A DNA stretch of 64,000 nucleotides from an uncultured Patescibacteria group bacterium (GCA_934699595.1 CAKUWT010000002.1:37065-101064); one strand, 5' to 3'; positions 1,341-36,785 are shown, numbered from the stretch's first letter. The notes: generated by a model from the sequence alone, not told the origin. Translations and numbers: made by a program.

Positions 1341-1394
1341 TTAGTTACTAGTATGACACAAAATAATCAGTTTGGCATAGGGCGTTGTGAGAAT

Positions 1395-1430
1395 AAAGGT
1401 CAGCGCCCCCAAATGGGGGCGCTGACCTTT
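1395..1430 (-). terminator. Rho-independent terminator hairpin downstream of pnp
   Basis: 16-bp perfect inverted repeat AAAGGTCAGCGCCCCC-AAAT-GGGGGCGCTGACCTTT between the pnp stop and the next minus-strand start. Confidence 0.6.
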
Positions 1431-1456
1431 AATCCTAATTAAATAATCCCACTACC

Positions 1457-3556: not shown

Positions 3557-3753
3557 TTTTAAGAAGTGTTTTATTTAATTTTATTAATATAGAGATAAGC
3601 ACACTTTAGATTTCAATAATTTGAAACCTACTTGTGCTCACCTCATCTATGAGGATAACAAAACCACCGCCCGGCACAAGTACCAGGCGGTGGTTTTACT
3701 TTTGTTTAGGTTGAAAAAATTATTTGGTATGACTTATAAAAAATATTTTACTT

Positions 3754-4386
3754 CTATAAGTCATCGGTGTCTGTACCTACTACTTGAGAAAATATTCCTG
3801 AGGTTTTTTTGGCCCCCGACTTTTTAGAGATGGTTTTTCTGAGACTCTGCTTTTTGGTTGCTGAGTAGGACTTACGTCGTTTGTAATTGATCAGGAAATC
3901 CTCAGGGTTTTCATCCAGATTGATAAAGTCATCAACGGCTTCAATTAGCCTGGCCGAAGTGGAGCGACCAAAAGTGATGGCTTCCACTTGACAGCCTTGA
4001 CCCTTGACGTACTCCACCAAGGGGACAAAATCCCCGTCGCCACTAGCGATGACGATGGCGTCAACTTTCTGAGCGAGTTTAATAGCGTCGACTGCGAGCC
4101 CAACATCCCAGTCAGCCTTTTTTGCTCCCCCGAAGAATACTTGTAGATCTTTAGTTTTAATCTCAATGCCACTTTTTTCCAAGGCTTCAAAAAAAGATTC
4201 CTCTTCCCCACTCTCAGTATTCACCACGTAGGCCAAGGCACGCACCAGCCGGCGGTCTCCAAGGGCCACGTCAACCAGATGTTTAAAGTTTACTCGAGCG
4301 TGATAAAGATTTTTTGCACTGTGATAAAGATTTTGGGTATCGATAAGGACAGCGACGCGTTGTTCCTTATGTTTGATTACACTCAT
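3754..4386 (-). CDS. NYN/LabA-like (PIN-like) domain protein with a basic C-terminal tail
   Basis: 210 aa with an N-terminal VAVLIDTQNLYHSA motif typical of NYN/LabA domains. It lies between rpsO and pnp. Confidence 0.65.
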   Translation of the reverse strand: MSVIKHKEQRVAVLIDTQNLYHSAKNLYHARVNFKHLVDVALGDRRLVRALAYVVNTESGEEESFFEALEKSGIEIKTKDLQVFFGGAKKADWDVGLAVDAIKLAQKVDAIVIASGDGDFVPLVEYVKGQGCQVEAITFGRSTSARLIEAVDDFINLDENPEDFLINYKRRKSYSATKKQSLRKTISKKSGAKKTSGIFSQVVGTDTDDL

Positions 4387-4479
4387 GATATTTTGTATTA
4401 AAAAGTTCAGATAATTAATTGATAAAAGTTTATAAAAATAAAATGTAAAAAGTGTTCTCGACAGAGAACACTTTTTAGC

Positions 4480-4746
4480 TTAACGTCTAAGACCGAGTTT
4501 TTCAAGCAGGGTCTGGTAGGTTTTTTCGTCAGTTCGCTCTAAGTATTTTAGGTGGCGTCGGCGGTTAGCTACCATCTGTAGCAAGCCTCGACGAGAGTGG
4601 AAGTCCTTTTTGTGGCTGCGGAGGTGGGTTGATAGTTCCTCAATTTGACGAGTCAACAGAGCTACTTGAGCTTCTGGTGATCCGGTGTCCCTCTCGTGAC
4701 GCTGAGTCTTTTTTAAAGTATTTTCTTTAACGCGTTTACTTAACAT
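4480..4746 (-). CDS. rpsO: 30S ribosomal protein S15
   Basis: 88 aa with an S15-typical sequence ([27 protein letters not shown]). Confidence 0.9.
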
Positions 4747-5298
4747 AAATATAATTTTTTGTTACACCGTTTGGATAGATACGTGCTTGGCAAAAGTAAT
4801 TAGGCCGCCCACTCCGTGGAGTAACTCCAGTAACCTGCGAAGGTCGCTGATTACTATAGCACAATCAGGTTAATATTTCAAGCTTCAGCCATAAATCCTA
4901 GTCTGTGAAACTGACGAAAATAAGCTTGTAGAACTTAGGTTTCTCAAGGAAGTGTTTTAGGTAATTGAGTATCCTCCTCACGACGTGATAACCCATCACT
5001 GGAGAGATGCCAAAGTTTCCCTGCTCACGGGTAGTTAAACAGAAAATGTAAAAAGTGGGTCGACAAGAAATTTCCTTCAGCGTGATTCACGTTGAACAAC
5101 AACTGACTGAGAAAAGAGTGACGGAAACGAGGGGACCATTTCTTTTTCAGAAGAGAGGCACGGTCAAGTGGAAGAGGTGGTGTCTAGAAACTATAAAAAA
5201 TGTGGGTCCCCTAGTGTATGGGGCAGGGAGTAGGTTTTGCTGGTCACCGATAAACTGGCCGATCGCTGAGAAATGTTGAGAGAGAAACTAACAGAGTA

Positions 5299-6240
5299 AT
5301 GTTAAAATGGATTGACATGGACTGGCAAACTTCATTGAAAGATTTTCAACAATATTTAGAAATTGAACGTGGTCGTAGTCAGGCGACGACTGAAAATTAT
5401 TTACGCTACTTGCGTAAGTATTTCCAGTTTGCCAAAATCAGTTCCCCGAGTGAGATTACTGAAGTTAGTGTTCGGGAGTGGCGGCTGCACTTAAACCGCT
5501 TACCAGGAACTAAAGTGGGTGGTCGTCAGGAACCGATGAAAAGACGAACTCAAAATTATTACTTGATAGCACTAAGAGCCTATTTAAAATTTTTACGAAT
5601 GCGCAATGTAGAGAGTTTGGCGCCAGAAAAAATCGAACTAGCCAAAGTGGCCTCGAGACAAATTGACATCATTACCGCTGCTGAGTTAGAGAGATTGTTG
5701 TTAGCTCCAGATCCGGCCACCCCGCAAGGCTTGCGTGATCGTGCTGTGCTACAGCTCCTCTTCTCGACGGGGCTTCGGGTATCTGAGTTGTGCTCTCTTA
5801 ACATTGACGATATTGATATGGAACGTGACGAGTTCTCGATTCGAGGTAAGGGAGAAAGGGTGCGGGTGGTGTTTTTGTCGGAGACTGCTAAGCGTATGAT
5901 TCGTGATTGGTTAGCGACGAGGGAAGATATTGAGGAGGCTCTTTTTATACAACTAGGAAAACGTAGCGCGGCCGATGGTAGTCGCCGGCTGCAGCCACGG
6001 GCAGTGCAGCGACTTTTGAAAAAGGCGGCAGTACTGGCTGGTATTACCCGTAAGGTGACACCACACACTATCCGTCACAGTTTCGCTACCGATTTGTTAA
6101 GAAACGGGGCCGACCTGCGAGCAGTTCAAAGCATGCTTGGACATGCTGACATCAGTACTACTCAGGTCTATACGCACGTGACTGATGCCCATTTACGAGA
6201 AGTTCATAAAAAATTTCATCACCGCAAAAATCAGGATTAG
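5299..6240 (+). CDS. Tyrosine site-specific recombinase, XerC/XerD family
   Basis: 313 aa with an N-terminal SAM-like domain and a C-terminal catalytic domain (RHSFAT..LLRNGADLRAVQSMLGHADISTTQVYTHV). Confidence 0.85.
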   Translation: MLKWIDMDWQTSLKDFQQYLEIERGRSQATTENYLRYLRKYFQFAKISSPSEITEVSVREWRLHLNRLPGTKVGGRQEPMKRRTQNYYLIALRAYLKFLRMRNVESLAPEKIELAKVASRQIDIITAAELERLLLAPDPATPQGLRDRAVLQLLFSTGLRVSELCSLNIDDIDMERDEFSIRGKGERVRVVFLSETAKRMIRDWLATREDIEEALFIQLGKRSAADGSRRLQPRAVQRLLKKAAVLAGITRKVTPHTIRHSFATDLLRNGADLRAVQSMLGHADISTTQVYTHVTDAHLREVHKKFHHRKNQD

Positions 6241-6303
6241 CAGAATAGAAATGCCCTCGCTAGTTAGCAAGGGCATTTTTAACAAATAGGGACTAGAGTT
6301 AAG

Positions 6304-6633
6304 TTAAAGTTTTTTTTCGAACTCAACCAAGAGAGCCAGCTTCCGTCTCAGTTCTCGTTTTGGATCTTGAGACCGTAGTAACCAAGCATGATTTTGCCAA
6401 GCGTGGCGGTAGCATTCACGGTTATGGAAAAAGAAGGGATGACCCCAGATAAACATCCGGAGGTGTTTCGGAGATTCTTCGCAGATAGCTCCGCGACAGC
6501 CGCAGATGCAAAGACCGTCCCTGTTGGTAAAGTTGAAAACGTGGTCGAGTACCGCAGCTCGATCTTCTCGATGGATAATCTTCCAGTACTGTTGATCTCC
6601 AGTCTGGTCAACCATCATGTTGCTGTAGTCCAT
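6304..6633 (-). CDS. Small Cys/His-rich protein; possible YHS/TRASH-like metal-binding fold; paralog 1
   Basis: 109 aa. It shares R.AVLDHVFNF..R...CICGC...H..M.IWG...FFH...C.R.A...DP..ELRR.LA with 6820..7131. An AGGAGG SD sits 8 nt upstream of the ATG. Confidence 0.45.
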   Translation of the reverse strand: MDYSNMMVDQTGDQQYWKIIHREDRAAVLDHVFNFTNRDGLCICGCRGAICEESPKHLRMFIWGHPFFFHNRECYRHAWQNHAWLLRSQDPKRELRRKLALLVEFEKKL

Positions 6634-6768
6634 TTTCCCCTACCTCCTGATTCTGATTCAGATCTGAAGAGAAGCTTACTGAATGTAGTAATTGGTGTCA
6701 ACTCATTGCCAAGTATCCCGCCCCGACTGTTTTGCTGGTCAGGGTTGTTTACGCTTTGGATTTAAAAA

Positions 6769-6793
6769 ACGGGTCCAGAATTTCTGGACCCGT
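6769..6793 (-). terminator. Hairpin terminator between the two paralogs
   Basis: ACGGGTCCAG-AATTT-CTGGACCCGT stem-loop flanked by an A/T run. Confidence 0.5.
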
Positions 6794-6819
6794 AATGGTG
6801 TCACTGTGGTCGGTACACA

Positions 6820-7131
6820 TTACATGATGACGTGTACCGCTAGGCGGCGCCTAAGCTCGTGCCGGGGATCTTTTCCTCGCTTCACAGTTTCGAGAACTTT
6901 TCTCGCGCGCCGGTGGCAGCGGAGCGAGTGAAAGAAATAGGCTCGTCCCCAGATACTCATTTTAGAGTGGTCTCCCAGACCACGATGGCGAATAGGTTGT
7001 CCGCAGCCGCAGATACAGACATCGCGCCTGTCTGCAAAATTGAAAACATGGTCAAGCACGGCCGTGCGGTTTTTTTCACGTATTATCACATCGCACTTGT
7101 TGCTGGTGTCGAACAGGTTGACAATATTCAT
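6820..7131 (-). CDS. Small Cys/His-rich protein; paralog 2 of 6304..6633
   Basis: 103 aa with the same conserved CICGC/FFH..C motif. A GAGGAGAGG SD lies upstream of the ATG. Confidence 0.45.
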   Translation of the reverse strand: MNIVNLFDTSNKCDVIIREKNRTAVLDHVFNFADRRDVCICGCGQPIRHRGLGDHSKMSIWGRAYFFHSLRCHRRARKVLETVKRGKDPRHELRRRLAVHVIM

Positions 7132-7260
7132 TCGTCCTCTCCTCTTGCTGAAACTTTCTTCTAGGTAAAATCATACTCAGCCGGAGCGCCAGTGTCAATT
7201 TTTGGTACTCATATATAGATGAGTACCAAAGTACATATTATCTTCTAACTAACAAAACAC

Positions 7261-7284
7261 GCCCCCGAGACTGGACTCGGGGGC
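7261..7284 (-). terminator. Rho-independent terminator
   Basis: GCCCCCGAG-ACTGGA-CTCGGGGGC stem, followed on the minus strand by a T-rich tract. Confidence 0.6.
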
Positions 7285-7303
7285 GCTATGGGTGGTGACA
7301 GCT

Positions 7304-7690
7304 TCAGTAAGCAAGATAGCCGATTCGCATACCGTTGCTCCAAGCCTCCACAATTTGAAAAGTGATTCCCCGGCGGCTGGTCCAGTGTCCAATAGGACGT
7401 TGGTAAATGGGGGTTGGCATCACCACGAAACCGCAGCCGGGACCACTGGGGCTGAGTGCCTGTCTCCGAACATGGACCTTGTTGAGAAATGAGTGTAAGT
7501 TTCTCTTTGAGGTACAGACAGACAGAGCATTCCTCAGAATGATACCTTGGGCTAGGTGAAGATCGGCCGCAGCTGCCTGGTTGGTAAATACCGCCGTGGT
7601 GACCTCGGCGGCGGCCCCGATTGAAGGGTTGCCAAGCAGTAAAGTCGCCGAAGTCAGTAATGTACTGATGACCTTTTTGAAAAAAGACAT
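7304..7690 (-). CDS. Hypothetical secreted protein with an N-terminal signal peptide
   Basis: 128 aa beginning MSFFKKVISTLLTSATLLLGNPSIGAAAE. An AAGGGAGG SD lies 7 nt upstream of the ATG. Preferred over the overlapping 189-aa R/S/P/G-rich ORF. Confidence 0.5.
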   Translation of the reverse strand: MSFFKKVISTLLTSATLLLGNPSIGAAAEVTTAVFTNQAAAADLHLAQGIILRNALSVCTSKRNLHSFLNKVHVRRQALSPSGPGCGFVVMPTPIYQRPIGHWTSRRGITFQIVEAWSNGMRIGYLAY

Positions 7691-7853
7691 GACGTGCCTC
7701 CCTTGTGTCTGATGTCTTCCGACTTTGATTAGACCATATTTTAATTAGAAAAACAATAAGTGCTGTTATTATGGTTAGGGAGTAAAAAGAACGGGAACGC
7801 GGATGCTTTTGCATCCGCGCCCTCGTTCCTTATTAGGGTCCATAGAGTAGCCT

Positions 7854-10268
7854 CTATAAATCATCGACCTCAAGCACAATCTCACCCCCCTTCTCTACTT
7901 GCCCGGCAATAATTTTGTTAGTCGCTGTATCCTCAATTTTTTCTGCAATCAAACGCTGTAAGGCACGTGCCCCAAAACGGTCGTCGTAACTGGCTGCAAT
8001 CAGAGTTTTAATAAACTCAGTACTCACGCGTAGTTTGTAGCCACGATCAGCCATCGACTTTTTAAGTTTATCAACCATTAGGTAAGCGATCTGAAAATAT
8101 TCGTCAGCATTCAAGGGTTCAAAAACCACCACATCGTCAAAGCGATTGATAAGCTCTCGTCGGAAGATACGGTTCTTGATCAGGTTGTCGACAACCGCAC
8201 TTTCAAGTGTGGGTGCGTCCATGCGGGCGGAGGTTGTATGAGCAATTAAATCCGCGGCCGCATTACTGGTTGCGATGATAATGGTGGTACGCAAATTGAC
8301 CCGCTCTCCGCGACCATCGGTGAAAAATCCCTCGTCAAGCATTTGTAGAAATAGATCATGGACGGACTGAGTAGCTTTTTCGAATTCATCAAACAGTAAA
8401 ACAGCATAAGGTTGCTGGCGAATTTTATCGGCCAAAGCTCCCGTCGCCCCTTTTTCACCAATCAGCTTTGCTAAACCGTCTGCCTGACTGTACTCCGACA
8501 TATCAAAACGAATCATGGCATTTTGATCTTTGAACAACACTCGCGATAGTGATTTGGCCGTTTCGGTTTTCCCTACCCCAGTTGGTCCCAGGAATAAGAA
8601 AGAGCCAATCGGTCGTTCAGTTTGACTCATTTGTAGACGAGCTCGGCGCAAGGCACGCGCGATACTGTTAATAGCGGCATCCTGCCCAATCACCTGGCAG
8701 TGCAGCTCGTCTTCCAGACCGAGCAATTGATCGCGTTCAGTATCGTCAATCGGTCCCATCGGTATGCCAGTTTTTTCACTAATATATGTATAGACAAAAT
8801 CTTCCTGCACCAAGTTAGTTTTTTGGCTCCTGACCACGCCGCTGATTTCAGCAAGAAAATCCAAAGCTCGGTCACTGAGGGTTTCCTGTTGTAGGCTGCG
8901 CTTACTTCCGGCCAGAATAGCCTCAAGAGCTGGGTAGGTAAAATAAACTCCCTGATAAGAAAGGTTCCTTGCGGCAGCTTCTAAAAGAGCAAGAACTTTT
9001 TCATCGCTGAGTTCCTCCACCAGGATTTGCTCAAAGCGCCGCACTACTCCACCGAGTGGGGAAATATGTCGATGGAAATTAGCGGGGGTGTCGGTGGCAA
9101 TAATATGTAAACCAGTCATGGCCAAATAATCATCAATCACAATTGGCAAACTCACTTGGTAACGAGCTGTCAAAGCCATCATGTCACTGAAGTTTTCAAT
9201 GATTATGGTGAGATTACCAGCTTCAGCCACCTGATCGAGAATGTCGTGAAAAGCAGCCTCGAGGTCAATCTGGTTTGGATAAGTTAGCACCAGCTTCTCT
9301 ATATCCAGAGGGATTAAGTGTTGTCCCGACAGAGCGTTGAGTGCACGTCCGGAACGAAGTCGCTGTTCAACCGCTAGCAAAATATCCATTTTACCTACCC
9401 CTTCATTACCTATGAGGAGGACATTACTGGCACGGCTATTAGCTAGGGCAACTTCAATTTTTTCAATCTCTGGCAAAAATTGCTTTTCAGCGGAAACTAA
9501 ATTAGCAAATGTGGCGTTAGCACGGAGAGGCTTAGAAAATTCTTCTAAGGCATAGGAATAACCGTAAACCAGTTCTCTTCCTAGGCCGCCGTGTCGTGAT
9601 AAATTATCTCGACTCCACCACCGTTCTCGCCGTAGCGATTCCTGGTGACCGCTGACCAACCAGCGAGCAGTTTTTAGAAAAGTAGCGGGAGTGACGCCTT
9701 CAGATTGAATAAAGTCACTAAAGCCAGTATCTTGCTTAAGGATAGTTTCAGCCAGGCTCCTTAGGGTGAAAGTTTTGGTGGGTAAAGGGATTTCAGTAGT
9801 TTGTAGACGGCGTCGTTCTGGCTGGTTTACCCAACTGTCAACCTTATCCAGATCAAGACCAGCTTGCCAAGCGATGCGTCTGCCCCAGAGAGATTCTAAA
9901 AATTGTCGAGTGAGGTCTCCTTGGTCGGGAATAAGAGTGTCGGCCACTGCAAAAGTAATCCCAGCCTGTGCTTTGTTGTGACTGGCAATAACTGAGTCTA
10001 GACCCCGAAAGTAGAAGCTGTTGCTGTAGGTGTAAACTAAGATTTGCTCTAACCATAAAGCGAAGAGGATCAGATTCAGTCCTAACCAGCGGGGATGATA
10101 CCAATCTGGATATATGGTTAGAGAAAGAATGAGGAAGATCAGTGAGAGGCAAAGTAGGTATAGCAAGGTTAGCCGCAGGCGACGTAGAAATGACCGTGTC
10201 GCTAAACGGTTTAGGATTACGAACGTGCGAAATTGGTTTAGAGTAGAGGTTAAATTTTTCTGATACAT
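7854..10268 (-). CDS. Clp/Hsp100-family AAA+ ATPase (ClpB/ClpC-like) with an N-terminal transmembrane region
   Basis: 804 aa with two AAA+ modules. NBD2 has a canonical Walker A (GPTGVGKT) and Walker B (LLFDEFE). NBD1 has GNEGVGKM and IIIENF. The N-terminal roughly 90 aa are strongly hydrophobic. Confidence 0.85.
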   Translation of the reverse strand: MYQKNLTSTLNQFRTFVILNRLATRSFLRRLRLTLLYLLCLSLIFLILSLTIYPDWYHPRWLGLNLILFALWLEQILVYTYSNSFYFRGLDSVIASHNKAQAGITFAVADTLIPDQGDLTRQFLESLWGRRIAWQAGLDLDKVDSWVNQPERRRLQTTEIPLPTKTFTLRSLAETILKQDTGFSDFIQSEGVTPATFLKTARWLVSGHQESLRRERWWSRDNLSRHGGLGRELVYGYSYALEEFSKPLRANATFANLVSAEKQFLPEIEKIEVALANSRASNVLLIGNEGVGKMDILLAVEQRLRSGRALNALSGQHLIPLDIEKLVLTYPNQIDLEAAFHDILDQVAEAGNLTIIIENFSDMMALTARYQVSLPIVIDDYLAMTGLHIIATDTPANFHRHISPLGGVVRRFEQILVEELSDEKVLALLEAAARNLSYQGVYFTYPALEAILAGSKRSLQQETLSDRALDFLAEISGVVRSQKTNLVQEDFVYTYISEKTGIPMGPIDDTERDQLLGLEDELHCQVIGQDAAINSIARALRRARLQMSQTERPIGSFLFLGPTGVGKTETAKSLSRVLFKDQNAMIRFDMSEYSQADGLAKLIGEKGATGALADKIRQQPYAVLLFDEFEKATQSVHDLFLQMLDEGFFTDGRGERVNLRTTIIIATSNAAADLIAHTTSARMDAPTLESAVVDNLIKNRIFRRELINRFDDVVVFEPLNADEYFQIAYLMVDKLKKSMADRGYKLRVSTEFIKTLIAASYDDRFGARALQRLIAEKIEDTATNKIIAGQVEKGGEIVLEVDDL

Positions 10269-10281
10269 ATATATGTATAAA

Positions 10282-10677
10282 TTAAAACATTAGCCAAAGT
10301 CCGTAAACTAAACAAAAGACAATCAGGGCTGGGGCAGCTAACCAGACAATATAAAAGCAGACACTCAAGATGGTGTAGAGCGTGAGCCCGACTAGTCCAG
10401 TAGTTAACACTGTGAGGCGAATAATCAGACCGAGTAATCTGCTGAGGGTATTAATTATTAGGCGTGTAAGGAATTCCTCTAAATTAAAACCGCGCGCTCT
10501 TGGCTCTGTCATCCGCTTGAAGGGGGCAAGTAAGGAGGCAGGCAGTTCTTTGATGGAAAAAAACTGTACGATAAACCACCAAAAATTACGAAAAACACGT
10601 AAATAAGAAGTGAGAGCTTCACTATAATGCCAACGCAAATAATCGTTAAGAAAGCCAAAAAATAACATAAGTGTCAT
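10282..10677 (-). CDS. Hypothetical integral membrane protein immediately upstream of the Clp-like ATPase
   Basis: 131 aa with several hydrophobic helices, separated by a 14-nt gap from the same-strand downstream gene. Confidence 0.45.
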   Translation of the reverse strand: MTLMLFFGFLNDYLRWHYSEALTSYLRVFRNFWWFIVQFFSIKELPASLLAPFKRMTEPRARGFNLEEFLTRLIINTLSRLLGLIIRLTVLTTGLVGLTLYTILSVCFYIVWLAAPALIVFCLVYGLWLMF

Positions 10678-10770
10678 TAATCCTATTGGTATTATAACCT
10701 AAACTAAATCTGGAGACCGGACTTGTCTGCAGGTAGTGATAAAAGTCTTTTGAGTAGTAGAGGCAAAACA

Positions 10771-10798
10771 AAAACTCCTGGCGTTTACCAGGAGTTTT
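10771..10798 (-). terminator. Rho-independent terminator of cspA
   Basis: AAAACTCCTGG-CGTTTA-CCAGGAGTTTT with flanking T-run. Confidence 0.6.
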
Positions 10799-10821
10799 TG
10801 TTAAGAAGTTACTTGTGCTAC

Positions 10822-11022
10822 CTAAGCACGAGCGACATTGGTGGCGGCAGGACCTTTTGGGCCTTCCTCAATGTCGAAAGAGACAGCATCCCCCTCGTTA
10901 AGGTCGTCGTAAGCAACGTCAACCACTGATTGGGCATGGAAGAAAACATCCTTGCTACCATCGTCAGGAGTGATAAAGCCGTAGCCGTTATCTTTTTTCA
11001 TGCGGGCAATTTTACCAGTCAT
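10822..11022 (-). CDS. cspA: Cold-shock protein (CspA family)
   Basis: 66 aa with KDNGYGFITPDDGSKDVFFH, characteristic of the cold-shock domain. Confidence 0.9.
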   Translation of the reverse strand: MTGKIARMKKDNGYGFITPDDGSKDVFFHAQSVVDVAYDDLNEGDAVSFDIEEGPKGPAATNVARA

Positions 11023-11205
11023 AATTAATTATTTATTTTTATCTATTAAAACAAAACTTCATCTCCTTAGGTGGTTCTTACATCCTTCCGAGTGAGCGTG
11101 GTTTCGCTGCTGCTATTAAAGCATATTTATAAGCAAAAACAAGTACTCGTGCTTACAAATACTGACTTTTGATGAAAGTTACAAAATAGCTTATATTAAG
11201 AAGTA

Positions 11206-11997
11206 ATGAAAATTTATTCTTGGAATGTGAACGGCATTCGCTCAGTGTACAGTAAAGGGCTGCTACAAAGCTTTATTAAGGAACACAATCCCGATATTCT
11301 TTGCTTACAAGAAACCAAAGCACAGCCAGAGCAGGTAGATTTTGTACTACCTGATTATAAGGAGTATTGGTGTTCAGCCACAAGGAAGGGCTACTCCGGT
11401 ACCGCTATTTATACCAAGGTTGCTCCGCGGCAGGTGTTATGCGGTTTTTCTAATGCGGTACAAAAGAAGCATCAGGTTGTTGATATTTACGGAGACGCTG
11501 CCACTGAAGGTCGGGTAACCACATTAGAGTTTGAGGATTACTACGTGGTCTCGGTCTATGTACCAAATGCTAAAGATGACCTGAGCCGTATCCCTCTCCG
11601 TGTACAGTGGGATGCTGCCCTGTTAGATTATTTGTTGGAATTGGAAAAAACCAAGCCCGTCCTTTGTGGTGGTGATTTTAACGTCGCTCATCAGGAGATT
11701 GACCTGGCTAGGCCAAAGCCGAATAGAGGCAAGAAGGGCTTCACTGATGAGGAGAGACAGGGTTTTACTAACTTCATTGAGAATGGTTTTTTTGATGCTT
11801 GGCGTACTTTGCATCCAGAGCAGACTGACGTCTACACCTGGTGGTCCCATTACGCCCAATCAAGAGCCCGGAATGTCGGTTGGCGGATAGACTATTGGTT
11901 AGTTTCCAACAAATTAAAGAAACAATTACTGCAAGCTGAAGTTCACGCCACTGTTATGGGTAGTGACCACTGCCCGGTTTCAATCACTCTTAAATGA
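11206..11997 (+). CDS. xth: Exodeoxyribonuclease III (AP endonuclease)
   Basis: 263 aa beginning MKIYSWNVNGIRS with the ExoIII/EEP-fold motifs. Confidence 0.9.
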   Translation: MKIYSWNVNGIRSVYSKGLLQSFIKEHNPDILCLQETKAQPEQVDFVLPDYKEYWCSATRKGYSGTAIYTKVAPRQVLCGFSNAVQKKHQVVDIYGDAATEGRVTTLEFEDYYVVSVYVPNAKDDLSRIPLRVQWDAALLDYLLELEKTKPVLCGGDFNVAHQEIDLARPKPNRGKKGFTDEERQGFTNFIENGFFDAWRTLHPEQTDVYTWWSHYAQSRARNVGWRIDYWLVSNKLKKQLLQAEVHATVMGSDHCPVSITLK

Positions 11998-12765
11998 ATA
12001 TAATTAAAGAGTTGAGAATTAGCCTTTGTTTACAAAGCAAAATTAAGTAACGGGTAAAGTGAACAGGTCTTGTCCTTTATAAAAGACAGAGTTTGCTCAC
12101 TTATCCCCACTTATACACATACTGTCCTTTACACTAACCTATAAAAGACATAATATACATGTAGGCCCAAAGAGGGCGCGCAGGAACTTTTCCTCGAGTT
12201 CTCCACAGAATCTTTCTGTTGAGAGTTCGGGGCTAAGCTCCCCGTAAAGAGTCCTTTATAAAAATAATAAGAGTTTTATCTCCAAAAATAACTCTAAAGT
12301 TCATAAGTAAAGAACAAACCCACCTTAATATAAGAAATCTGCTTACTAGTTCTCTAAAGACTAATAAGTGCAGTGATGTACGAGGTAGTGCTTGATAGAA
12401 TACGTAAGTAATCTTGATTTCTTCTCAAAGAGAGCAAAAAAAGGTTAACCACATTGTAATAGTGGATACCAATAGAGGAAAAACCTCCAATAATAAAGCT
12501 CTAAATCAAAAGGCCTGCGGGAGTTGCTAGTTAATGACAGTTTGACTACCAACTTCCCCAGGCCTTTTTCTATGGTTGAACATGGATCGTTTTAAATCTA
12601 ATCTGCAGATAAAATATCGCTGGTAACACCTTAGGGTGCTATCGATATTACGGACAGTTAGTTACGAGTAATTAGCTGAAACTGGATGAGGTCTAATATT
12701 TCTCTTATTTGGAGCAAAAAAGACATGATGAAAGGCCGGGACTATAAAACGGCTGTTTATTAAAG

Positions 12766-14235
12766 CTAAGTCACCTTGTGATTTCGAGCAATCGCTTGCA
12801 GGGCTTTAGCTTCCTCGTCAGCTAACAGCTTTTTGCCAGCAGCGGCAAGCTCTTCCAGCTCATCATCAGGGAGTAAGACTAACTCTTGCACCCGTTTCTC
12901 CAGATAATCGGCGGTATTCTTCTGTGGATCACTCAAGACTTCTTCCAAAAGGCTGTTTAATAATAAACCAAGCTTTTTACCAGGTTTTTCGTTGGTAACA
13001 CTCATGATTTTGCTGCCATCAATTTTCAATAAAGCGACAGAAATAGGGTCTCGGCGGGCTTCATCCACCATCGCTTGGTATTTTCGTAAGCGAAATGGCA
13101 GCGCTTTCGGTCTACCGGTGCCGATACGGTCACAAATACGCAGTTTTAACAAGTCGTCGATGTTCTCCTCCCCTACCCGCACAATCGTACGACGCACTGC
13201 CGCCAAGGTAATTTCATCTGGATCTGAGAAAAACATATGCCAGCGCACCAAAGTCACTACTTTGTCACTAATTTCTTTAGGAATACGCAATGAAGCCAAG
13301 ATTTCCTTAGTCATCTTCGCCCCCACTACTTCGTGACCGAAGAAGGTGTAGTGTTTGTTTTTACCTCCCGTACGTCTGGTGGCCGGTTTACCAATGTCGT
13401 GGAATAGAGCGGCTAATTTGAGGGTGTAACTGTAGTTCTTGTCACTGGCGGCCTGCAGTGAGCGTAACAAGTGCTCATAAACATCGTATTTATGCACCCC
13501 GCCCTGCTCACAGCCGATAGTGGGCAGTAATTCTGGTACCACGTACTGCAGAAGACCAAATTTTTCCAATAGAATAATGCCATACATTGGTTTATCAGAA
13601 GCGATAATCTTAGAAAACTCACTACCGATCCGTTCTCGGGAGATTTGCTTAAGCTTAGCTGCTTGGTCGCAAATGCCGGCAATGGTGTCTGGCTCTATTA
13701 GGAAATCTAGTTGAGCTGCCAACCGTACCGCGCGGAGCATGCGGAGCGCGTCTTCAGCGAAACGTTCCCCAGGGTCACGAACAGCTCGTAAACGTCCCTC
13801 TCGTAGATCTCGCAGACCATTAAAGGGGTCAATAATCTGTAAATCAGTTACTCGAATAGCGATAGCGTTAACGGTAAAGTCACGCCTAGCCAAGTCTTCC
13901 TCTAAAGAGACCCCAAAAACAACAGAATCCGGCCGTCTGGCGTCACTGTAAGTGCCTTCTGCTCGATAGGGAGTTATTTCAATCACTTGGAGAGTGGGGT
14001 CTGGGTCCTCAGTTTTTACACCAACAGTACCGTAGTCGTTATTGCAAAAACTATCTGGAAAAATTGTCTGAATTTGCTCAGGAGTGGCGTTGGTGGTTAA
14101 ATCCCAGTCGTTTGGTTGGCGTTTGGTCAATAAATCGCGCACACAACCACCAATTAGGTAGGCGGTAAAACCAGCTTTTTCTAAATCATCGGCTAGGCTA
14201 TGAATGATCGCCGGGATATTTGTTTGAGAAACCAT
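12766..14235 (-). CDS. cca: CCA-adding tRNA nucleotidyltransferase, polymerase-beta head plus HD domain
   Basis: 489 aa with GGCVRDLLL..DWDL at the N-terminus and an HD motif (LFHDIGKP). Confidence 0.85.
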   Translation of the reverse strand: MVSQTNIPAIIHSLADDLEKAGFTAYLIGGCVRDLLTKRQPNDWDLTTNATPEQIQTIFPDSFCNNDYGTVGVKTEDPDPTLQVIEITPYRAEGTYSDARRPDSVVFGVSLEEDLARRDFTVNAIAIRVTDLQIIDPFNGLRDLREGRLRAVRDPGERFAEDALRMLRAVRLAAQLDFLIEPDTIAGICDQAAKLKQISRERIGSEFSKIIASDKPMYGIILLEKFGLLQYVVPELLPTIGCEQGGVHKYDVYEHLLRSLQAASDKNYSYTLKLAALFHDIGKPATRRTGGKNKHYTFFGHEVVGAKMTKEILASLRIPKEISDKVVTLVRWHMFFSDPDEITLAAVRRTIVRVGEENIDDLLKLRICDRIGTGRPKALPFRLRKYQAMVDEARRDPISVALLKIDGSKIMSVTNEKPGKKLGLLLNSLLEEVLSDPQKNTADYLEKRVQELVLLPDDELEELAAAGKKLLADEEAKALQAIARNHKVT

Positions 14236-14388: not shown

Positions 14389-14440
14389 CAATCGTTACTT
14401 AATTTTATTACGTAACAAAACTTCCTAGAGATAATAAAAC

Positions 14441-14635
14441 ATTATTTGGGCAGAAACAGTGTAAAGACACTGTTTCTGAGACTAGTACCACCAGGGCATT
14501 TCTATTTTTATAGTCGGACTATCGTCCTTCTTAAAAATAAGTCAAGCCCGATTGAGATATTTCTAAGGCGACAGCCGAAAGAAATATCCAATTGGGGTAC
14601 TGAACCTGTAAGGTTCGAGTCCTGGTTGGGGTAAA
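14441..14635 (+). repeat. tRNA-associated modular repeat element, copy A, ending in a degenerate copy of the tRNA-Arg 3' half
   Basis: tttgggCAGAAACAGTG-taaaga-CACTGTTTCTG hairpin at 14451-14478. A GATATTT...AAATATC stem-loop at 14556-14588. The end is GGTTCGAGTCCTGGTTGGGG, compared with the tRNA's GGTTCGAGTCCTGGTGGGTGC. Confidence 0.6.
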
Positions 14636-15400: not shown

Positions 15401-16090
15401 ATGACCGTAAAAAAACCCTATAAACAAAAGCTATATCAGGAAGCGCTTACTTTGAGGCAGCGTGGCTTTACCTATACTCAGATTGCAGAAATCTGTGGTA
15501 TTTCACGTGGAACCGTCAGTAATTGGCTAAAAGACCACTCTTTTTCCCAGCGAGTAGCTTTAGATAATCAAAAAAGAGCTGTCAGGCAGAATAAGGAGCG
15601 TCTAAAACTAGTTAACAAAACTAGAGCTAATGAACGCCAACGACAGCTGGCTGAAATGGTTCGTCACGCCACTGTGGAGTTTAAGAATTATCAGTCCTCT
15701 CCCCTGTTTATGAGCGCTTTAGCGCTTTATGCCGGTCACGCTGATCATAAAGCAACTAATCAGGTGCGCTTTAGTAGCAATCAAGTCGAGCTTCATTTAA
15801 TCTTTAAACGGTTCCTGCTCAAATACGCTGGCGTTACCAACGAACGTTTACGTCTCGCTCTGCAAATACCAGAAACAGCTAACCAAGAACGGTGCCGAAA
15901 ATATTGGGCGCAGAAACTAGGACTAAAAGCTAATCAGTTCTACAAAATCCAGCTTATCCCTAGGGGTCACACCAGTAGACCGTTGCATTTTGGGACCGGA
16001 AACACTATAATCAATGATACTTTACTTCAAGCTAAGTTGCAGACCTGGGCAAAGCTCACTTTGCAGCAGCTGAGTAAAAAGAGTTCTTGA
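15401..16090 (+). CDS. Hypothetical protein with an N-terminal helix-turn-helix domain
   Basis: 229 aa. LRQRGFTYTQIAEICGISRGTVSNWLK resembles resolvase/terminase-small-subunit-type HTH. The C-terminal half is unassigned, with only a weak LAGLIDADG-like stretch (LYAGHADH). Confidence 0.45.
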   Translation: MTVKKPYKQKLYQEALTLRQRGFTYTQIAEICGISRGTVSNWLKDHSFSQRVALDNQKRAVRQNKERLKLVNKTRANERQRQLAEMVRHATVEFKNYQSSPLFMSALALYAGHADHKATNQVRFSSNQVELHLIFKRFLLKYAGVTNERLRLALQIPETANQERCRKYWAQKLGLKANQFYKIQLIPRGHTSRPLHFGTGNTIINDTLLQAKLQTWAKLTLQQLSKKSS

Positions 16091-16106
16091 TTAAGTTCAA
16101 TACATT

Positions 16107-16180
16107 GCGGCCATGGTTAAGTGGTATAACATGTCGTTGCCAACGATAAGTCGAGAGTTCGATTCTCTCTGGCCGCACCA
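16107..16180 (+). tRNA. tRNA-Gly(GCC) with genomically encoded CCA
   Basis: Hand fold. The acceptor is GCGGCCA/TGGCCGC, the D stem GTTA/TAAC, the anticodon loop TTGCCAA, and the T arm GAGAG-TTCGATT-CTCTC. The discriminator A is followed by CCA. Confidence 0.85.
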
Positions 16181-16231
16181 AAAGTGACCTAATCTTATTA
16201 CGTTAGGTATTCTCTATATTAAACAAACTTT

Positions 16232-16368
16232 ATTTGGGCAGAAACAGTCCGGGGGACTGTTTCTGAGAATCGAAGGGTTAGTCAGATATTTTAAGGTCTG
16301 ATAGGTGAACTAAAATATCGATAACCAGCACTGAACCCGTAGAGTCCGATTCCCTCTAGTCGCACCAA
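16232..16368 (+). repeat. tRNA-associated modular repeat element, copy B, ending in a degenerate copy of the tRNA-Gly(GCC) 3' half
   Basis: tttgggCAGAAACAGTC-cggggg-GACTGTTTCTG hairpin at 16239-16265. The 9-bp stem GATATTTTA...TAAAATATC covaries with copy A. The end is GAGTCCGATTCCCTCTAGTCGCACCA, compared with the tRNA's GAGTTCGATTCTCTCTGGCCGCACCA. Confidence 0.6.
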
Positions 16369-16768
16369 AGGGTAGTGTAATCCTGTTATAGTACACACTG
16401 TCTATTTATTGAAACTGGATGAATCTGTTGATCAAGGTCAGCCCCCACGTCGCTTACAGAGTATTAGTCATTAAATAGACAGGGTCCTCATAAACTCAGT
16501 ATTTGGACCCAGATCAGACCTATAGGCCTATAAGGGAAAAAGATAATAGACAAAAGTCGCCTCTGGGGACAAACCTGTGTATTTGTGGATAAGAGACAAT
16601 CGTCTTTTATGGATTATCTTATTTAGAGCCATATATTAAAAGACATAGTCAAAATATGGTCTTATTTAATGTTTCACGTGAAACAAGTTACACGAGAAAC
16701 AGTCTTTAGCTAGAACGATAACCAAGTATCATTTTAATTAGACCAGGCTGTGTGTTAAACTAGCCTCA

Positions 16769-17170
16769 GTGTCAAGGCTAAAAAATAAGCAAATTGGCAA
16801 TCTAGGAGAATCTGTTGTTGCAAATCACTTAGTGAGACATGGGTTCACTATTTTAGAACGAAATTACCTTAAAAAGTGGGGTGAAATTGACATTATTGCA
16901 GTCAAAAGCGATAAAGTGCATTTTATCGAAGTAAAAACTGTTTCATATGAAACAAAATCTCTATTAAAGTATGCTGTTACACATGAAACTTGGCGACCTG
17001 AAGAAATGGTGCATAAGCATAAACAAGAACGGTTTAAGCGAGTAATCGACACTTGGTTAAGCGCCACTAGTTATCAAGGAGATTGGCAAATTGATGTTAT
17101 CACCTTAAGAATTGTGCCACGTGAAACATACGCTGTTATAAAAGTCTTTGATAATTTAATCTTTGAGTGA
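16769..17170 (+). CDS. YraN/UPF0102-family putative endonuclease
   Basis: 133 aa with G..GE..A..HL...G..ILERNY....GEIDIIA....V.FIEVKT, the UPF0102 signature. Confidence 0.7.
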   Translation: MSRLKNKQIGNLGESVVANHLVRHGFTILERNYLKKWGEIDIIAVKSDKVHFIEVKTVSYETKSLLKYAVTHETWRPEEMVHKHKQERFKRVIDTWLSATSYQGDWQIDVITLRIVPRETYAVIKVFDNLIFE

Positions 17171-18117
17171 ACGCAGACATGTTACACGTGTAACTAAAAT
17201 GTCCGAATATTGAGATTTAGGACCAAAATTACGTTTTTATAAAAAACAAACATAAAATAAATGAGGACAGTCCTGCTGATAGTAGATAATTTTGTAATCT
17301 AGTTAAGAGCCAGTCATCTTTTGGGAGTAGAGGCGAGGGTTACACGTGTAACTGAATTCGCAGAAACGTAGGCTAGATTGAGCCGTCTTTGATCAGCACG
17401 CTAGAATAATGGACGTATTTATACCTGCTGGCACTACCTTCTTTAGGTAATTCTCAAAAAAAGAGAAGAAAAGGTTACCGACTGATTGGTCCAGGGCTGC
17501 CGGACTTACTGACTTGGTTAAAAAACTTCGAAATTCTTCTTGATAAACACTGCCTTGGTGCATTGGTTGAGATTACCGCTTAATTATAAGGTGATTTATG
17601 TAGAATTTACCGTTTTAGAAGTAAAAATGTTTCCCATGAAACGGCTTTTAAAAAAATAATACTTATAAATCGATCTTTGGGCAAAGACCTTAAGTCTTTG
17701 TTGGTACAACTTACTCGTTGGAATCAACTTTGGGTCATATTTTTCTAAAAAAGAGGATATAATACTTATTATACGCTGGAGTGCATCAGAAGTTTGGACT
17801 TAAATGCTATTCAGGTGTTACACGTGTAACTGGTTAGATTACAAAAATTCCAGAAACTAGTAGAATCGATATGAAATTTGGCAGAAACCGGTAAAAAACT
17901 GGCAATAACTTCTAATTATCTGTCATGGGGTTAGTTTCACGTGAAATATTTGTCTTGTGAGCTTCAGTTTAAATCTATGAGGGTTTTTGACTGGCGCAAA
18001 AGGTTAAGCAAATGGTGGAGGATTAACTGTTGTTGTATACATAGCGATATGTAATCGAACTGTGCGGTTTCAGCATGGATTGTCGATTTTTTACTTGCTA
18101 TTAAGTGGGTACTAGCC
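17171..18117. repeat. Roughly 950-bp noncoding stretch with no ORF of 60 aa or more, containing repeated 14-bp CACGTG-core palindromes and hairpin repeats
   Basis: GTTACACGTGTAAC occurs at 17181-17194, 17339-17352 and 17817-17830. GTTTCACGTGAAA(t) occurs at 17934-17946, and GTTTCACGTGAAAC lies upstream at 16671-16684. A tttgggCAAAGAC-cttaag-GTCTTTG hairpin sits near 17672-17700. Confidence 0.55.
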
Positions 18118-18390
18118 TGACTATAAAAATAGAAATGTCCTGGCGGTACTGTTCACAGAAACAGTCTCCCAGACTGTTTCTGCCCAGACAGAGTTGCTTC
18201 GCCTCTTAGCGTTAAATTGCTCACTAATATTCAGTAACCTAGATGTCGGGGAGCCGGGAATCGAACTCTACGAGTTCAGTATCCCAATTGGATATTTCCT
18301 TCGGCTGGCGCCTTAGAAATATCTCAATCGGGCTTCGATTCCTCAAGAATAGTCCCCCAGACTATTCTTGCCCAAACAACGTTAGGTTTT
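18118..18390 (-). repeat. tRNA-associated modular repeat element, copy C (minus orientation, split architecture), containing a copy of the tRNA-Pro 3' half
   Basis: On the minus strand, a tttgggCAAGAATAGTC-tgggg-GACTATTCTTG hairpin at 18345-18371 is followed by aatcgaagcccgattgagatatttctaagg and a tRNA-like end GTTCGATTCCCGGCTCCCCGACA at about 18245-18268. That end is identical to the tRNA-Pro 3' end. A second hairpin unit, CAGAAACAGTC-tgggag-GACTGTTTCTG with its agtaccgccaggacatttctatttttatag tail, lies at 18118-18185. Confidence 0.6.
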
Positions 18391-18436
18391 GTATCTGTAG
18401 TTATATGTTACTCACTAATATCCAGTAAGTCACTTG

Positions 18437-25385: not shown

Positions 25386-25832
25386 ATGATGAAATTAATG
25401 AAAGAACGTGGTTTCACCCTCATCGAACTCTTGGTGGTGATTGCCATTATTGGTATTCTCGCCGCTGTAGTCTTAGCTTCACTTAACGATGCACGTAAGT
25501 CTGGTAATGATGCTGCTCTAAAACAATCGATGGCGTCACTAAGATCACAGGCGGAGATTTTCTATAATGAAAATAGTTTTTCTTACAGCGGTTTCTGTGC
25601 CACCTTGGCTACCGGTCAGCCAAACGCAGCTCTAGCTGCCTCAATTCAGAACAATAGTAACGGGGCAGGTGCTCCTGTGTGTGTGCAAAATACCAGTGGC
25701 ACAGGTTGGGCAACCACAGCTATTATATCTTCAGGTAGAAAGTGGTGTGTAGATAGTACTGGAGTGGCTAGGGATATTGCTGCTGCGGCTACAACCCCTA
25801 CAAATGCGGACCCTACTTGTCCAGCTTCTTAA
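25386..25832 (+). CDS. Type IV major pilin, copy 1
   Basis: 148 aa with the prepilin leader MMKLMKERG followed by FTLIELLVVIAIIGILAAVVL, and C-terminal Cys pairs. Confidence 0.85.
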   Translation: MMKLMKERGFTLIELLVVIAIIGILAAVVLASLNDARKSGNDAALKQSMASLRSQAEIFYNENSFSYSGFCATLATGQPNAALAASIQNNSNGAGAPVCVQNTSGTGWATTAIISSGRKWCVDSTGVARDIAAAATTPTNADPTCPAS

Positions 25833-25854
25833 TTTAGTATAAAAACCAAATAAT

Positions 25855-25884
25855 AAAACAAGACCCGTATCCGGGTCTTGTTTT
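25855..25884 (+). terminator. Rho-independent terminator after pilin 1
   Basis: AAAACAAGACCCG-TAT-CCGGGTCTTGTTTT. Confidence 0.65.
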
Positions 25885-26053
25885 ATTATGATTAACTGTC
25901 CCAGTTATATATACCTAGGAGTTATGCACAGACAAAAATAATTACCATACTGGATATAGAGGTTTCTTGTATACTTAAAAAAGATTAAGGTATACAGCTG
26001 TTACCTGAATCAAACTGATAACAAACCTTATCAATAAAAATTTAAGAATCAAT

Positions 26054-26494
26054 ATGATGAAATTAATGAAAGAACGTGGTTTCACCCTCATCGAACTCTT
26101 GGTGGTGATCGCTATTATCGGTATTCTCGCCGCTGTAGTCTTAGCTTCACTTAATGACGCCCGTAAGTCTGGTAATGATGCCGCTTTGAAACAGTCGATG
26201 GCGTCGGTGCGGTCGCAAGCAGAAATTCATTATAATGAAAATGGCTTTTCTTATGCCACTTTCTGTGACAGTGGTACATTGGCTTCTGCCAATGCAGCCT
26301 TGCGTGATTCTATTAGGAATAATAGCAGCGACAACACTAATCCCGTTTGTACTTCGAGTGCAGATGCCTGGGCGGCCTCAGCTAGGATTTCTGACAATCC
26401 CGGTACTACCGCTCGCTATTGGTGTGTAGATAGTACGGGTGCGGCCAGAGAGGGGACGACTGCTCTAGGATCTAGCGCGACAGTTTGTCCGTAG
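26054..26494 (+). CDS. Type IV major pilin, copy 2
   Basis: 146 aa. The first roughly 60 codons and 71 nt of upstream sequence are near-identical at the nucleotide level to copy 1. The C-terminus is divergent. Confidence 0.85.
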   Translation: MMKLMKERGFTLIELLVVIAIIGILAAVVLASLNDARKSGNDAALKQSMASVRSQAEIHYNENGFSYATFCDSGTLASANAALRDSIRNNSSDNTNPVCTSSADAWAASARISDNPGTTARYWCVDSTGAAREGTTALGSSATVCP

Positions 26495-26510
26495 ACCGCT
26501 AGTCTTGAGG

Positions 26511-26549
26511 AAAACAAAAACCGCCATCTTTGATGGCGGTTTTTGTTTT
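26511..26549 (+). terminator. Rho-independent terminator after pilin 2
   Basis: AAAACAAAAACCGCCATC-TTTG-ATGGCGGTTTTTGTTTT. Confidence 0.65.
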
Positions 26550-26575
26550 CCTAAGTATGTTATTATTTGAGGACA

Positions 26576-27043
26576 ATGAGATTGTGCCAATTACAGCTAG
26601 GTAAACAGCGGGGTTTCACCCTCATCGAACTCTTGGTGGTGATTGCAATTATCGGTATTCTGGCTGCCGTAGTTTTAGCTTCATTAAATAGTGCCCGCAA
26701 ACAAGGGAATGATGCTGCTCTAAAACAATCGATGGCGTCACTAAGATCACAGGCGGAGATTTATTACCTAAGAAGTAATTTTACTTACGACGGTTTCTGC
26801 GACACGTTAACCTCCGGAAAAGTTAATGCGCACTTAGGAGATTCGATTAAGAAAAACAGCAACAACAACACTGCTCCAGTTTGTAATGATGAGGATCAGG
26901 TTTGGGCTGCCTCGGCACAGATATCTCCACAGGGTGTAGTGAGCCGCTATTGGTGTGTAGACAGCACGGGAGTCGCCAAGGAGCAGGCTTCTGCTTTGGC
27001 TGGCATGGCTGGCGCACCCGCGGTCGACACCCAGTGTTTGTAA
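26576..27043 (+). CDS. Type IV major pilin, copy 3 (longer leader peptide)
   Basis: The ATG at 26576 gives MRLCQLQLGKQRG|FTLIELLVVIAIIGILAAVVL. The track's TTG at 26567 is an alternative start. The C-terminal half is divergent. Confidence 0.8.
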   Translation: MRLCQLQLGKQRGFTLIELLVVIAIIGILAAVVLASLNSARKQGNDAALKQSMASLRSQAEIYYLRSNFTYDGFCDTLTSGKVNAHLGDSIKKNSNNNTAPVCNDEDQVWAASAQISPQGVVSRYWCVDSTGVAKEQASALAGMAGAPAVDTQCL

Positions 27044-27045
27044 GC

Positions 27046-27387
27046 CCGGCTTCTTCGGTGCGCTCACAGGCGGAGATTCATTATTTAAAAAATGGTTTCA
27101 CTTACACTAGTTTTTGTAACTCTTTTAACTCCGGCCAAGCAAATTTTCCCTTAGGGCAATCAATTAAGAAAAATAGTTATGCCAATGAAGGAATCGCTTG
27201 TATGGATAGAAATTCTAGCTGGGCTGTTGTTGCTCCGGTGTTACGAGAGGGGGGCGAAGTGAAGGCGTGGTGCGTAGACAGCACTGGCTGGGCGGGGATG
27301 CTGCAGGTTTCAGATAGTTTATATTACTATAATGCCAATATCTTAAAGCCAGACTCATGCCACTCCTTTACTCTTGTTGCCAGTTAG
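27046..27387 (+). pseudogene. 5'-truncated pilin copy lacking start codon, leader and N-terminal helix; a silent-cassette candidate
   Basis: Reading-frame homology begins at ...SVRSQAEIHYLKNGFTY..FC...GQSIKKNS...WCVDSTG, matching the pilin C-terminal domains (compare copy 2 ASVRSQAEIHYNENGFSY and copy 3 GDSIKKNS). It directly abuts the pilin 3 stop and is only read through from an out-of-frame overlap, 26902.. in the track. Confidence 0.6.
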
Positions 27388-33822: not shown

Positions 33823-33830
33823 GTGGTCCT

Positions 33831-36771: not shown

Positions 36772-36785
36772 CAGCTGGTATAACT

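Follow-up and report, generated by a model that had tools for sequence, protein, structure and literature searches.

A dense array of parS-like palindromes is conserved in and around yraN across a Patescibacteria lineage

RESULTS

Palindromes matching the parS consensus cluster in and around yraN

The window analyzed here, a 64,000-nucleotide stretch of DNA from an uncultured Patescibacteria group bacterium (CAKUWT010000002.1:37065-101064), carries a cluster of CACGTG-core palindromes in and around yraN, the gene for a nuclease of the UPF0102/YraN family. These palindromes are probably chromosomal parS sites that would form a cis-acting centromere array with ParB as the binding partner, a reading to which we assign a probability of roughly 0.8. 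The parS site itself is known. What is new is its setting: a dense array that is conserved across a Patescibacteria lineage, lies partly in the yraN coding sequence, is found >10 kb from parAB and dnaA in 81 genomes, and has a conserved run of DnaA boxes alongside.

Eleven copies of the GTTWCACGTGWAAC family (≤2 mismatches) were detected, all between positions 15500 and 17947, and none in the other 61.5 kb of the window. By comparison, dinucleotide-preserving shuffles of the window (n = 100) contained 0.59 ± 0.89 copies, with a maximum of 4. The original prediction, which had been made from the DNA before this analysis, described this clustering as far from chance, and the shuffles bear this out. 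It also rightly took genome-wide density as the key test, the motif being ~300-fold denser at the locus than in the flanks. All the individual sites it listed were recovered. The 14-mer GTTACACGTGTAAC is present at 17181, 17339, and 17817, and GTTTCACGTGAAAC at 16671, with a close variant, GTTTCACGTGAAAT (1 mismatch), at 17934. The distances to yraN were likewise correct, the site at 16671-16684 ending 85 nt before the GTG start codon (16769) and the site at 17181 starting 10 nt after the stop codon (ends at 17170). A half-site inside the nuclease open reading frame (ORF), CACGTGAAAC, is part of the 14-mer GTGCCACGTGAAAC at 17114 but starts at 17118 instead of 17117, and the variant GTTTCCCATGAAAC exists but at 17629, one position off from 17628. 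However, the count of five or six was too low. Four members of the cluster had been missed, at 15500 in the gene for a neighboring helix-turn-helix (HTH) protein, at 16687 beside the perfect site, and at 16940 and 16976 in yraN.

Taken as 16-mers of the GTTNCACGTGNAAC family, the sites span positions 15499-17948 (2.4 kb) (Table 1). Compared to TGTTNCACGTGNAACA, one site has 0 mismatches, three have 1, six have 2, and one has 3. Their spacing is irregular, from 16 to 290 nt inside the main cluster, and identity between copies drops beyond the 16-mer; the sites are not pieces of longer duplications. The bare CACGTG hexamer is neither enriched nor avoided (15 in the window compared to 10.5 expected), and therefore the signal resides in the full 14- to 16-mer.

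Across the lineage, the 205 sites that lie outside the yraN coding sequence give a consensus identical to TGTTTCACGTGAAACA. Its outer T and A lay outside the search pattern and therefore constitute an independent match to parS. The same 16-mer is the optimal parS of Bacillus subtilis, where it is the loading site of ParB/Spo0J (PMC4333373), and the parS of Hyphomonas neptunium, whereas the consensus for B. subtilis and for Burkholderia chromosome I is written TGTTNCACGTGAAACA, with near variants in Streptococcus, Streptomyces, Caulobacter, and Myxococcus (PMC7022226, Table 1). The exact 16-mer was also found paired with the term parS in published papers. The 14-mer that recurs three times, GTTACACGTGTAAC, departs from parS solely at the position written N in the B. 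subtilis consensus, and at this free position the 205 sites carry T (56%), C (27%), A (14%), or G (3%). Position 2 is G in 91% of these sites and position 7 is A in 96%. The original prediction had overlooked what, judged by these matches, is the sequence of the canonical parS centromere.

Table 1. Positions of the putative parS sites and associated features. Coordinates refer to the window unless another locus is named; mismatches are to TGTTNCACGTGNAACA.
Feature	Position	Strand	Remarks
Outlying parS-like site TATTTCACGTGGAACC	15499..15514		2 mismatches; within the HTH-protein gene, codes I-S-R-G-T of the HTH turn
Putative DnaA-box element	16563..16592	-	Perfect TTATCCACA at 16584-16592 and degenerate neighbor at 16564-16572 (2 mismatches)
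Putative parS site TGTTTCACGTGAAACA	16670..16685		Full 16-bp palindrome without mismatch; ends 84 nt ahead of the yraN start
Degenerate parS-like site AGTTACACGAGAAACA	16686..16701		2 mismatches; abuts the perfect site
yraN (UPF0102/YraN-family PD-(D/E)XK nuclease, 133 aa)	16769..17170	+	Pfam PF02021, E = 1.6e-18; NCBIfam YraN models
parS-like site TGTTTCATATGAAACA in yraN (first in-gene site)	16939..16954		Central CG changed to TA, perfect palindrome kept; codes V58-S-Y-E-T62
parS-like site TGTTACACATGAAACT in yraN (second in-gene site)	16975..16990		2 mismatches; codes V-T-H-E-T
Putative parS site TGTGCCACGTGAAACA in yraN (third in-gene site)	17113..17128		1 mismatch; codes V-P-R-E-T
Putative parS site TGTTACACGTGTAACT	17180..17195		1 mismatch (outer base); A/T at free N positions; 14-bp core begins 10 nt past yraN stop
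Putative parS site GGTTACACGTGTAACT	17338..17353		Perfect 14-bp core; 2 mismatches, both outer bases
Weak parS-like site TGTTTCCCATGAAACG	17628..17643		3 mismatches; function doubtful
Putative parS site TGTTACACGTGTAACT	17816..17831		1 mismatch
Putative parS site AGTTTCACGTGAAATA	17933..17948		2 mismatches
Transformation genes	25386-27387, 32068-38834, 43585-45261		
Transformation genes, left extension (L002)	14452-15969 of L002		ComM-like side, left
Distant-clade arrays	L068 10538-11427; L071 6672-7564; L075 3437-4363; L081 10574-11603		In the CCA-adding-enzyme gene

The array is kept at one locus in relatives

Eighty related loci were retrieved through the CCA-adding enzyme encoded near the array. 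Of these, 55 hold a yraN homologue upstream of the CCA gene and, together with the window, make up 56 loci; the counts that follow refer to the fetched loci and their flanks. Sites of the GTTNCACGTGNAAC family (≤1 mismatch) occur 292 times within 3 kb of yraN in the 56 loci (0.88 per kb) compared to 2 times in the remaining 687 kb (0.003 per kb), and in all loci plus the window 305 sites were observed compared to 2.8 in shuffles. The array is kept at the same locus in 55 of the 56 yraN-bearing loci, the window included, with at least three sites in 46 loci and at least five in 32. Arrays have between 2 and 13 sites (median, 6), with a median span of 940 bp and a maximum of 4.5 kb. Homologues of yraN are found at the array center in the 56 loci, and in the window this gene holds three of the sites. 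Roughly one site in two falls within an ORF of ≥100 aa, yraN included, and 7 sites of relatives lie inside homologues of the HTH gene, which is usually found between the CCA gene and yraN. In many relatives a site is found at -45 to -98 from yraN, and in some a site is near the yraN start. A 138-nt spacing of two sites also recurs in many genomes and corresponds to two of the three in-frame yraN sites, from the second in-gene site to the next.

A shifted array was found in a distant clade, where 4 or 5 parS-like sites are inside the gene for the CCA-adding enzyme and not in yraN, with conserved spacings of 321, 326, and ~242 nt. Therefore, the array belongs to the locus and not to one gene, and it has shifted between neighboring genes in evolution.

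Synonymous codons are frozen at the in-gene sites

The three in-gene sites read GTT-NCA-CGT/CAT/TAT-GAA-ACN and encode V-S/T/P-R/H/Y-E-T. Codon use at each site was compared by a binomial test with that for the same amino acid elsewhere in the same genes, across 56 homologues. At the first in-gene site, GTT was used in 51 of 51 cases (background, 40%), TCA in 49 of 50 (21%), and GAA in 48 of 50 (57%), and its Tyr was encoded by TAT in 39 of 41. The second site showed GTT in 35 of 37, TCA in 26 of 28, CAT in 23 of 23 (background, 60%), and CGT in 12 of 12 cases, and the third showed CCA in 36 of 37 (background, 43%), CGT in 33 of 35 (21%), and GAA in 34 of 39. The codon entropy at V58-S59-Y60-E61 is 0 to 0.28 bits, whereas the invariant catalytic columns used as a control (E54, V55, K56, and G38) use all synonymous codons, with 0.94 to 1.78 bits. 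Because synonymous positions are frozen at the sites while adjacent invariant residues are saturated, selection acts on the DNA sequence itself. In the first in-gene site, every free base is the parS base and the two central deviations (CATATG for CACGTG) are forced by the Tyr codon; distant homologues with Arg at that position carry the perfect core GTTTCACGTGAAA.

Points that weigh against a parS array

Some observations weigh against the identification of the palindromes as parS. First, no more than 4 of the 11 sites in the window come within 1 mismatch of TGTTNCACGTGNAACA; on the parS reading, ParB would also bind the sites with 2 or 3 mismatches, including the one with the CATATG core. 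Second, the binomial P values for the frozen codons (1e-3 to 1e-32) treat related genomes as independent, a concern that the saturated control columns lessen but do not remove. Third, neither the 64-kb window nor the 8.5 kb by which its left side was extended (L002) contained a ParA, ParB, SMC, DnaA, or Rep gene, and no parAB, SMC, dnaA, or dnaN was found within 10 kb of the array in the 80 relatives. A search for ParB with motif expressions (GERRxRA and KGGxGK[ST]T) and by tblastn, using approximate Spo0J, Soj, and DnaA queries, likewise gave no match in 1.2 Mb. Fourth, parS typically lies close to the origin, and the array is clearly not at oriC. Finally, a literature search on ParB or parS in Patescibacteria found no publication.

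DnaA boxes lie upstream of yraN

The window's only perfect DnaA box, TTATCCACA, is found between the array's outlying site and its perfect site. In relatives, 1 to 4 boxes of the same orientation (TGTGGATAA on the yraN strand, often ending ...ATAAAGGAC) lie 100 to 200 nt upstream of yraN in 54 of 56 genomes, with 98 boxes on the yraN strand compared to 4.2 in shuffles and 8 on the opposite strand. This run resembles a cluster of DnaA boxes outside the origin or else a promoter regulated by DnaA, in either case a putative one.

The DnaA-box element was also considered as a hairpin or structured RNA, and this was rejected: the stems around it are no longer than in the shuffled null, and a search of Rfam over 14-19 kb returned tRNAs only. 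The 399-nt yraN upstream region folds with z = -2.6, mostly due to a long near-perfect hairpin at 16395-16485 (18-nt arms, 89% complementary, 55-nt loop) that lies between the tRNA-Gly module described below and the DnaA boxes.

The position of the array relative to the replication origin was assessed by third-codon-position GC skew, which separates replication from coding-strand effects, bulk GC skew being ambiguous. On the + strand of the window and its left extension, the skew left of the array was +0.12 in 4 plus-strand genes and +0.17 in 12 minus-strand genes, and right of the array it was +0.15 in 34 plus-strand genes and +0.19 in 4 minus-strand genes. In relatives, it was positive on the left side in 29 of 37 loci and on the right side in 35 of 37. 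With no change of sign on either side, the region is therefore replicated in a single direction, and the array is on one replichore and not at oriC. The skew places the origin somewhere left of the analyzed sequence, >23 kb from the array; on the parS reading, the array would lie in the origin-proximal part of the chromosome.

Two other features lie on this side of the window. The + strand is G-rich by third-position skew over 1-14235 and the left extension, yet of the 16 genes to the left of the array 12 are encoded by the - strand, including those for PNPase, a ClpB-like protein, UvrD, KsgA, a ComM-like protein, and others. The G-rich strand is the leading strand in most bacteria; if this holds here, a block of >20 kb has its genes on the lagging strand, an arrangement that few bacteria show. 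In addition, a 770-bp stretch between convergent genes (11998-12765) has no ORF of at least 120 aa, which is unusual for so compact a genome, and holds four one-mismatch DnaA-box-like 9-mers, all on the + strand (12101, 12111, 12199, and 12445).

Genomic neighborhood of the array

The window is chromosomal DNA of a small-genome, Kaiserbacteria/Paceibacteria-like Patescibacteria bacterium. Its genes include those for PNPase, a ClpB-like ATPase, the CCA-adding enzyme, an ECF sigma factor, trigger factor, NusA, type IV pilus proteins, TIM, PGK, RecJ, ComEC, EF-G, and ribosomal proteins, as well as four tRNA genes. The CCA-adding enzyme (12766-14235, minus strand) shares no more than 68% identity with proteins of species-representative genomes, most of which carry the label Candidatus Kaiserbacteria, Paceibacteria, Parcubacteria, or Patescibacteria. 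Close to 14.3 kb the orientation of the genes diverges, and 16-18 kb is the lowest-GC stretch of the window (GC, 0.37).

The tRNA genes around the array (Arg, Gly, and Pro) are each followed by the same ~190-nt module, in the regions 14390-14634 (+), 16181-16369 (+), and 18110-18436 (-). Each module consists, in order, of a hairpin (CAGAAACAGT...ACTGTTTCTG), an ~60-nt element (AGCCCGATTGAGATATTTCTAAGGCG.CAGCCGAA.GAAATATCCAATTGGG.TACTGAAC), and a degenerate 3'-end copy of the upstream tRNA. ARAGORN called no tRNA in the module and Rfam gave no match to it; it looks like either a small insertion targeting tRNA 3' ends or the decayed remains of tRNA units in tandem. In a short-read assembly from this sample, the break falls close to these tRNA-adjacent repeats (L001, 3.6 kb). 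A further repeat, CAGAAAC, is present in 24 copies, six of which are paired arms of three hairpins beside tRNA genes, and shows no tie to parS.

A full natural-transformation gene set surrounds the array (Table 1), comprising pilins, a type IV pilus ATPase and platform protein, ComEC, a ComM-like ATPase, and YraN. Bacteria of the candidate phyla radiation have been reported to be naturally competent, and this gene set fits.

DISCUSSION

How a parS array at yraN might work

The steps proposed here are drawn from established ParABS biology. Dimers of canonical ParB (Spo0J) would bind each 16-bp site via their HTH domains, and parS would stimulate the CTP-dependent closure of the ParB clamp, which would then slide or spread onto flanking DNA. 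Closely spaced sites would nucleate one large partition complex, and ParA would segregate this complex and/or the complex would load SMC condensin onto the chromosome. We infer that a ParB is encoded in this genome and would bind the sites.

ParB occupancy may also affect yraN expression, because sites occupy its promoter region, the gene itself, and the DNA just after its stop codon, and in some relatives also lie close to its start. One study of Streptococcus pneumoniae describes ParB spreading from parS as modulating competence (PMC4488948). Carried further, the centromere would be written into both the control region and the coding part of yraN, and ParB loading or spreading could gate YraN expression, coupling the state of segregation to DNA uptake and recombination; or, more radically, ParB would be absent and the neighboring HTH/LAGLIDADG-like protein would be a new reader of parS. 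Such extensions are unlikely.

Other explanations of the palindromes

One alternative is that the neighboring conserved HTH protein (15401-16090) binds the sites as a homodimer, either to regulate yraN and its neighbors or to read the centromere instead of ParB. The original prediction had suggested operators for a dimeric regulator such as this protein, and the first half of that idea holds, since the sites are a nonrandom family of the kind used by a dimeric DNA-binding protein. The choice of the HTH protein, however, is not supported: it has no ParB/KorB-like sequence or fold, and 11 related loci keep arrays of 2 to 7 sites with no HTH homologue within 5 kb. Moreover, the sites are not confined to promoters, about half being inside ORFs. 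This makes binding by the HTH protein distinctly unlikely. A scan of genome contigs with the HTH protein as the query gave no match.

Another palindrome-binding regulator of yraN, for example, a competence regulator, would make the likeness to parS a coincidence. YraN is described in a 2026 preprint as a single-stranded DNA endonuclease that is needed with ComM to resolve transformation D-loops and is required for natural transformation in several species (10.1101/2024.02.06.579203). Such a regulator would fit this role, the presence of ComEC and type IV pilus proteins in the window with a ComM-like ATPase just to the left, and the location of sites at the yraN promoter region, near its start, inside it, and just after it. 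But a 16-of-16 match between the consensus and parS is hardly expected by coincidence, and one small gene would have no need of 5 to 13 operators that extend over 0.9 kb in the median case and 4.5 kb at most. The distant clade with sites in the CCA-enzyme gene (L068, L071, L075, and L081) shows in addition that the array tracks the locus and not yraN regulation. We regard this alternative as very improbable.

It is more improbable still that the region is oriC and that its parS sites and DnaA boxes are parts of an origin. The conserved, oriented DnaA-box-like 9-mers upstream of yraN (98 compared to 4.2 expected), the location here of the window's sole perfect TTATCCACA, the low GC content, and the diverging gene orientation are what an origin might show, but the third-position skew is positive on both sides of the array for both gene orientations in the window, and on each side in most relatives. 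Furthermore, no dnaA or dnaN was found within 10 kb in any genome examined, and the window has one perfect box plus degenerate neighbors only, with no unwinding element identified in the AT-rich region.

Finally, it is scarcely credible that the palindromes are plasmid iterons brought in by integration or recognition or cleavage sites linked to a nuclease, be it YraN or a restriction-modification system specific for CACGTG. The original prediction had raised iterons and nuclease-linked sites; the CACGTG core is a palindrome of the type II restriction-site kind next to a PD-(D/E)XK nuclease gene, and the degenerate tRNA 3'-end copies that flank the region hint at past insertions. But YraN is reported as a single-stranded DNA endonuclease that acts with ComM on D-loops rather than as a sequence-specific enzyme (10.1101/2024.02.06.579203), the window shows neither avoidance nor enrichment of CACGTG, its genes near the array include none for a methyltransferase or Rep, the sites are palindromes instead of direct repeats in a chromosomal context, and 56 genomes keep the array by vertical descent at a single chromosomal locus. 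Nothing in these data suggests sequence-specific recognition by YraN. Restriction-site and uptake-sequence identities were rejected as well, CACGTG being unskewed window-wide and the motif nearly absent (2 copies) from the 687 kb of flanks, whereas uptake sequences are genome-wide.

Significance and comparison with known systems

Given that parS is a textbook element, its probable identification here is in itself unsurprising. It does correct the tempting view that the palindromes belong to a nuclease or regulator, and it gives a sequence by which the chromosome partition locus can be recognized in Patescibacteria, a very large group that is uncultured and in which the biology of the chromosome has hardly been studied. 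The locus is also a clean natural case of one stretch of DNA carrying a binding-site code on top of a protein code, with synonymous positions that are fixed in the parS-like motifs and saturated in neighboring catalytic residues. The detachment from parAB and dnaA, the DnaA-box run alongside, and the location on a transformation gene are leads on how chromosomes are organized and segregated in very small cells.

The Noc-binding sites (NBS; ATTTCCCGGGAAAT) of Firmicutes are a related 14- to 16-bp palindrome, bound by the ParB paralogue Noc through a ParB-family HTH. They have A at position 2 and C at position 7 and are scattered over the chromosome away from the terminus. In contrast, the present sites carry the parS bases G2 and A7 and are confined to one locus, and an NBS identity was rejected on the 91% and 96% occupancy of these two positions among the 205 sites.

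Clusters of DnaA boxes outside the origin are known as well, for instance, datA of Escherichia coli and the DnaA-box clusters of B. subtilis. The putative run upstream of yraN resembles these in having several TTATCCACA-like boxes of the same orientation outside oriC at a conserved position, but differs in that the window has a single perfect box.

Location of parS inside genes has long been known, for example, in spo0J of B. subtilis. The present sites share with the chromosomal parS of ParABS systems (B. subtilis, 10 sites, TGTTNCACGTGAAACA; H. neptunium, TGTTTCACGTGAAACA; PMC7022226) the same 16-bp consensus and the same degenerate position, and, as in those systems, several copies are found per chromosome, some of them inside coding sequences. 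Unlike typical chromosomal parS, the array lies >10 kb from parAB and dnaA in the 81 genomes, and it is unusually dense (11 sites in 2.4 kb; lineage median, 6 in 0.94 kb) and centered on yraN. Dense arrays have been described in Myxococcus xanthus (22 sites, all in the ori domain), Streptomyces coelicolor (21 sites), and Caulobacter crescentus (5 sites) (PMC7022226, Table 1). Here too many related copies lie in one region and presumably nucleate a single partition complex. However, those arrays are in the origin domain (PMC7022226), whereas the present locus is not oriC, and several of its sites are held in coding sequence via frozen synonymous codons.

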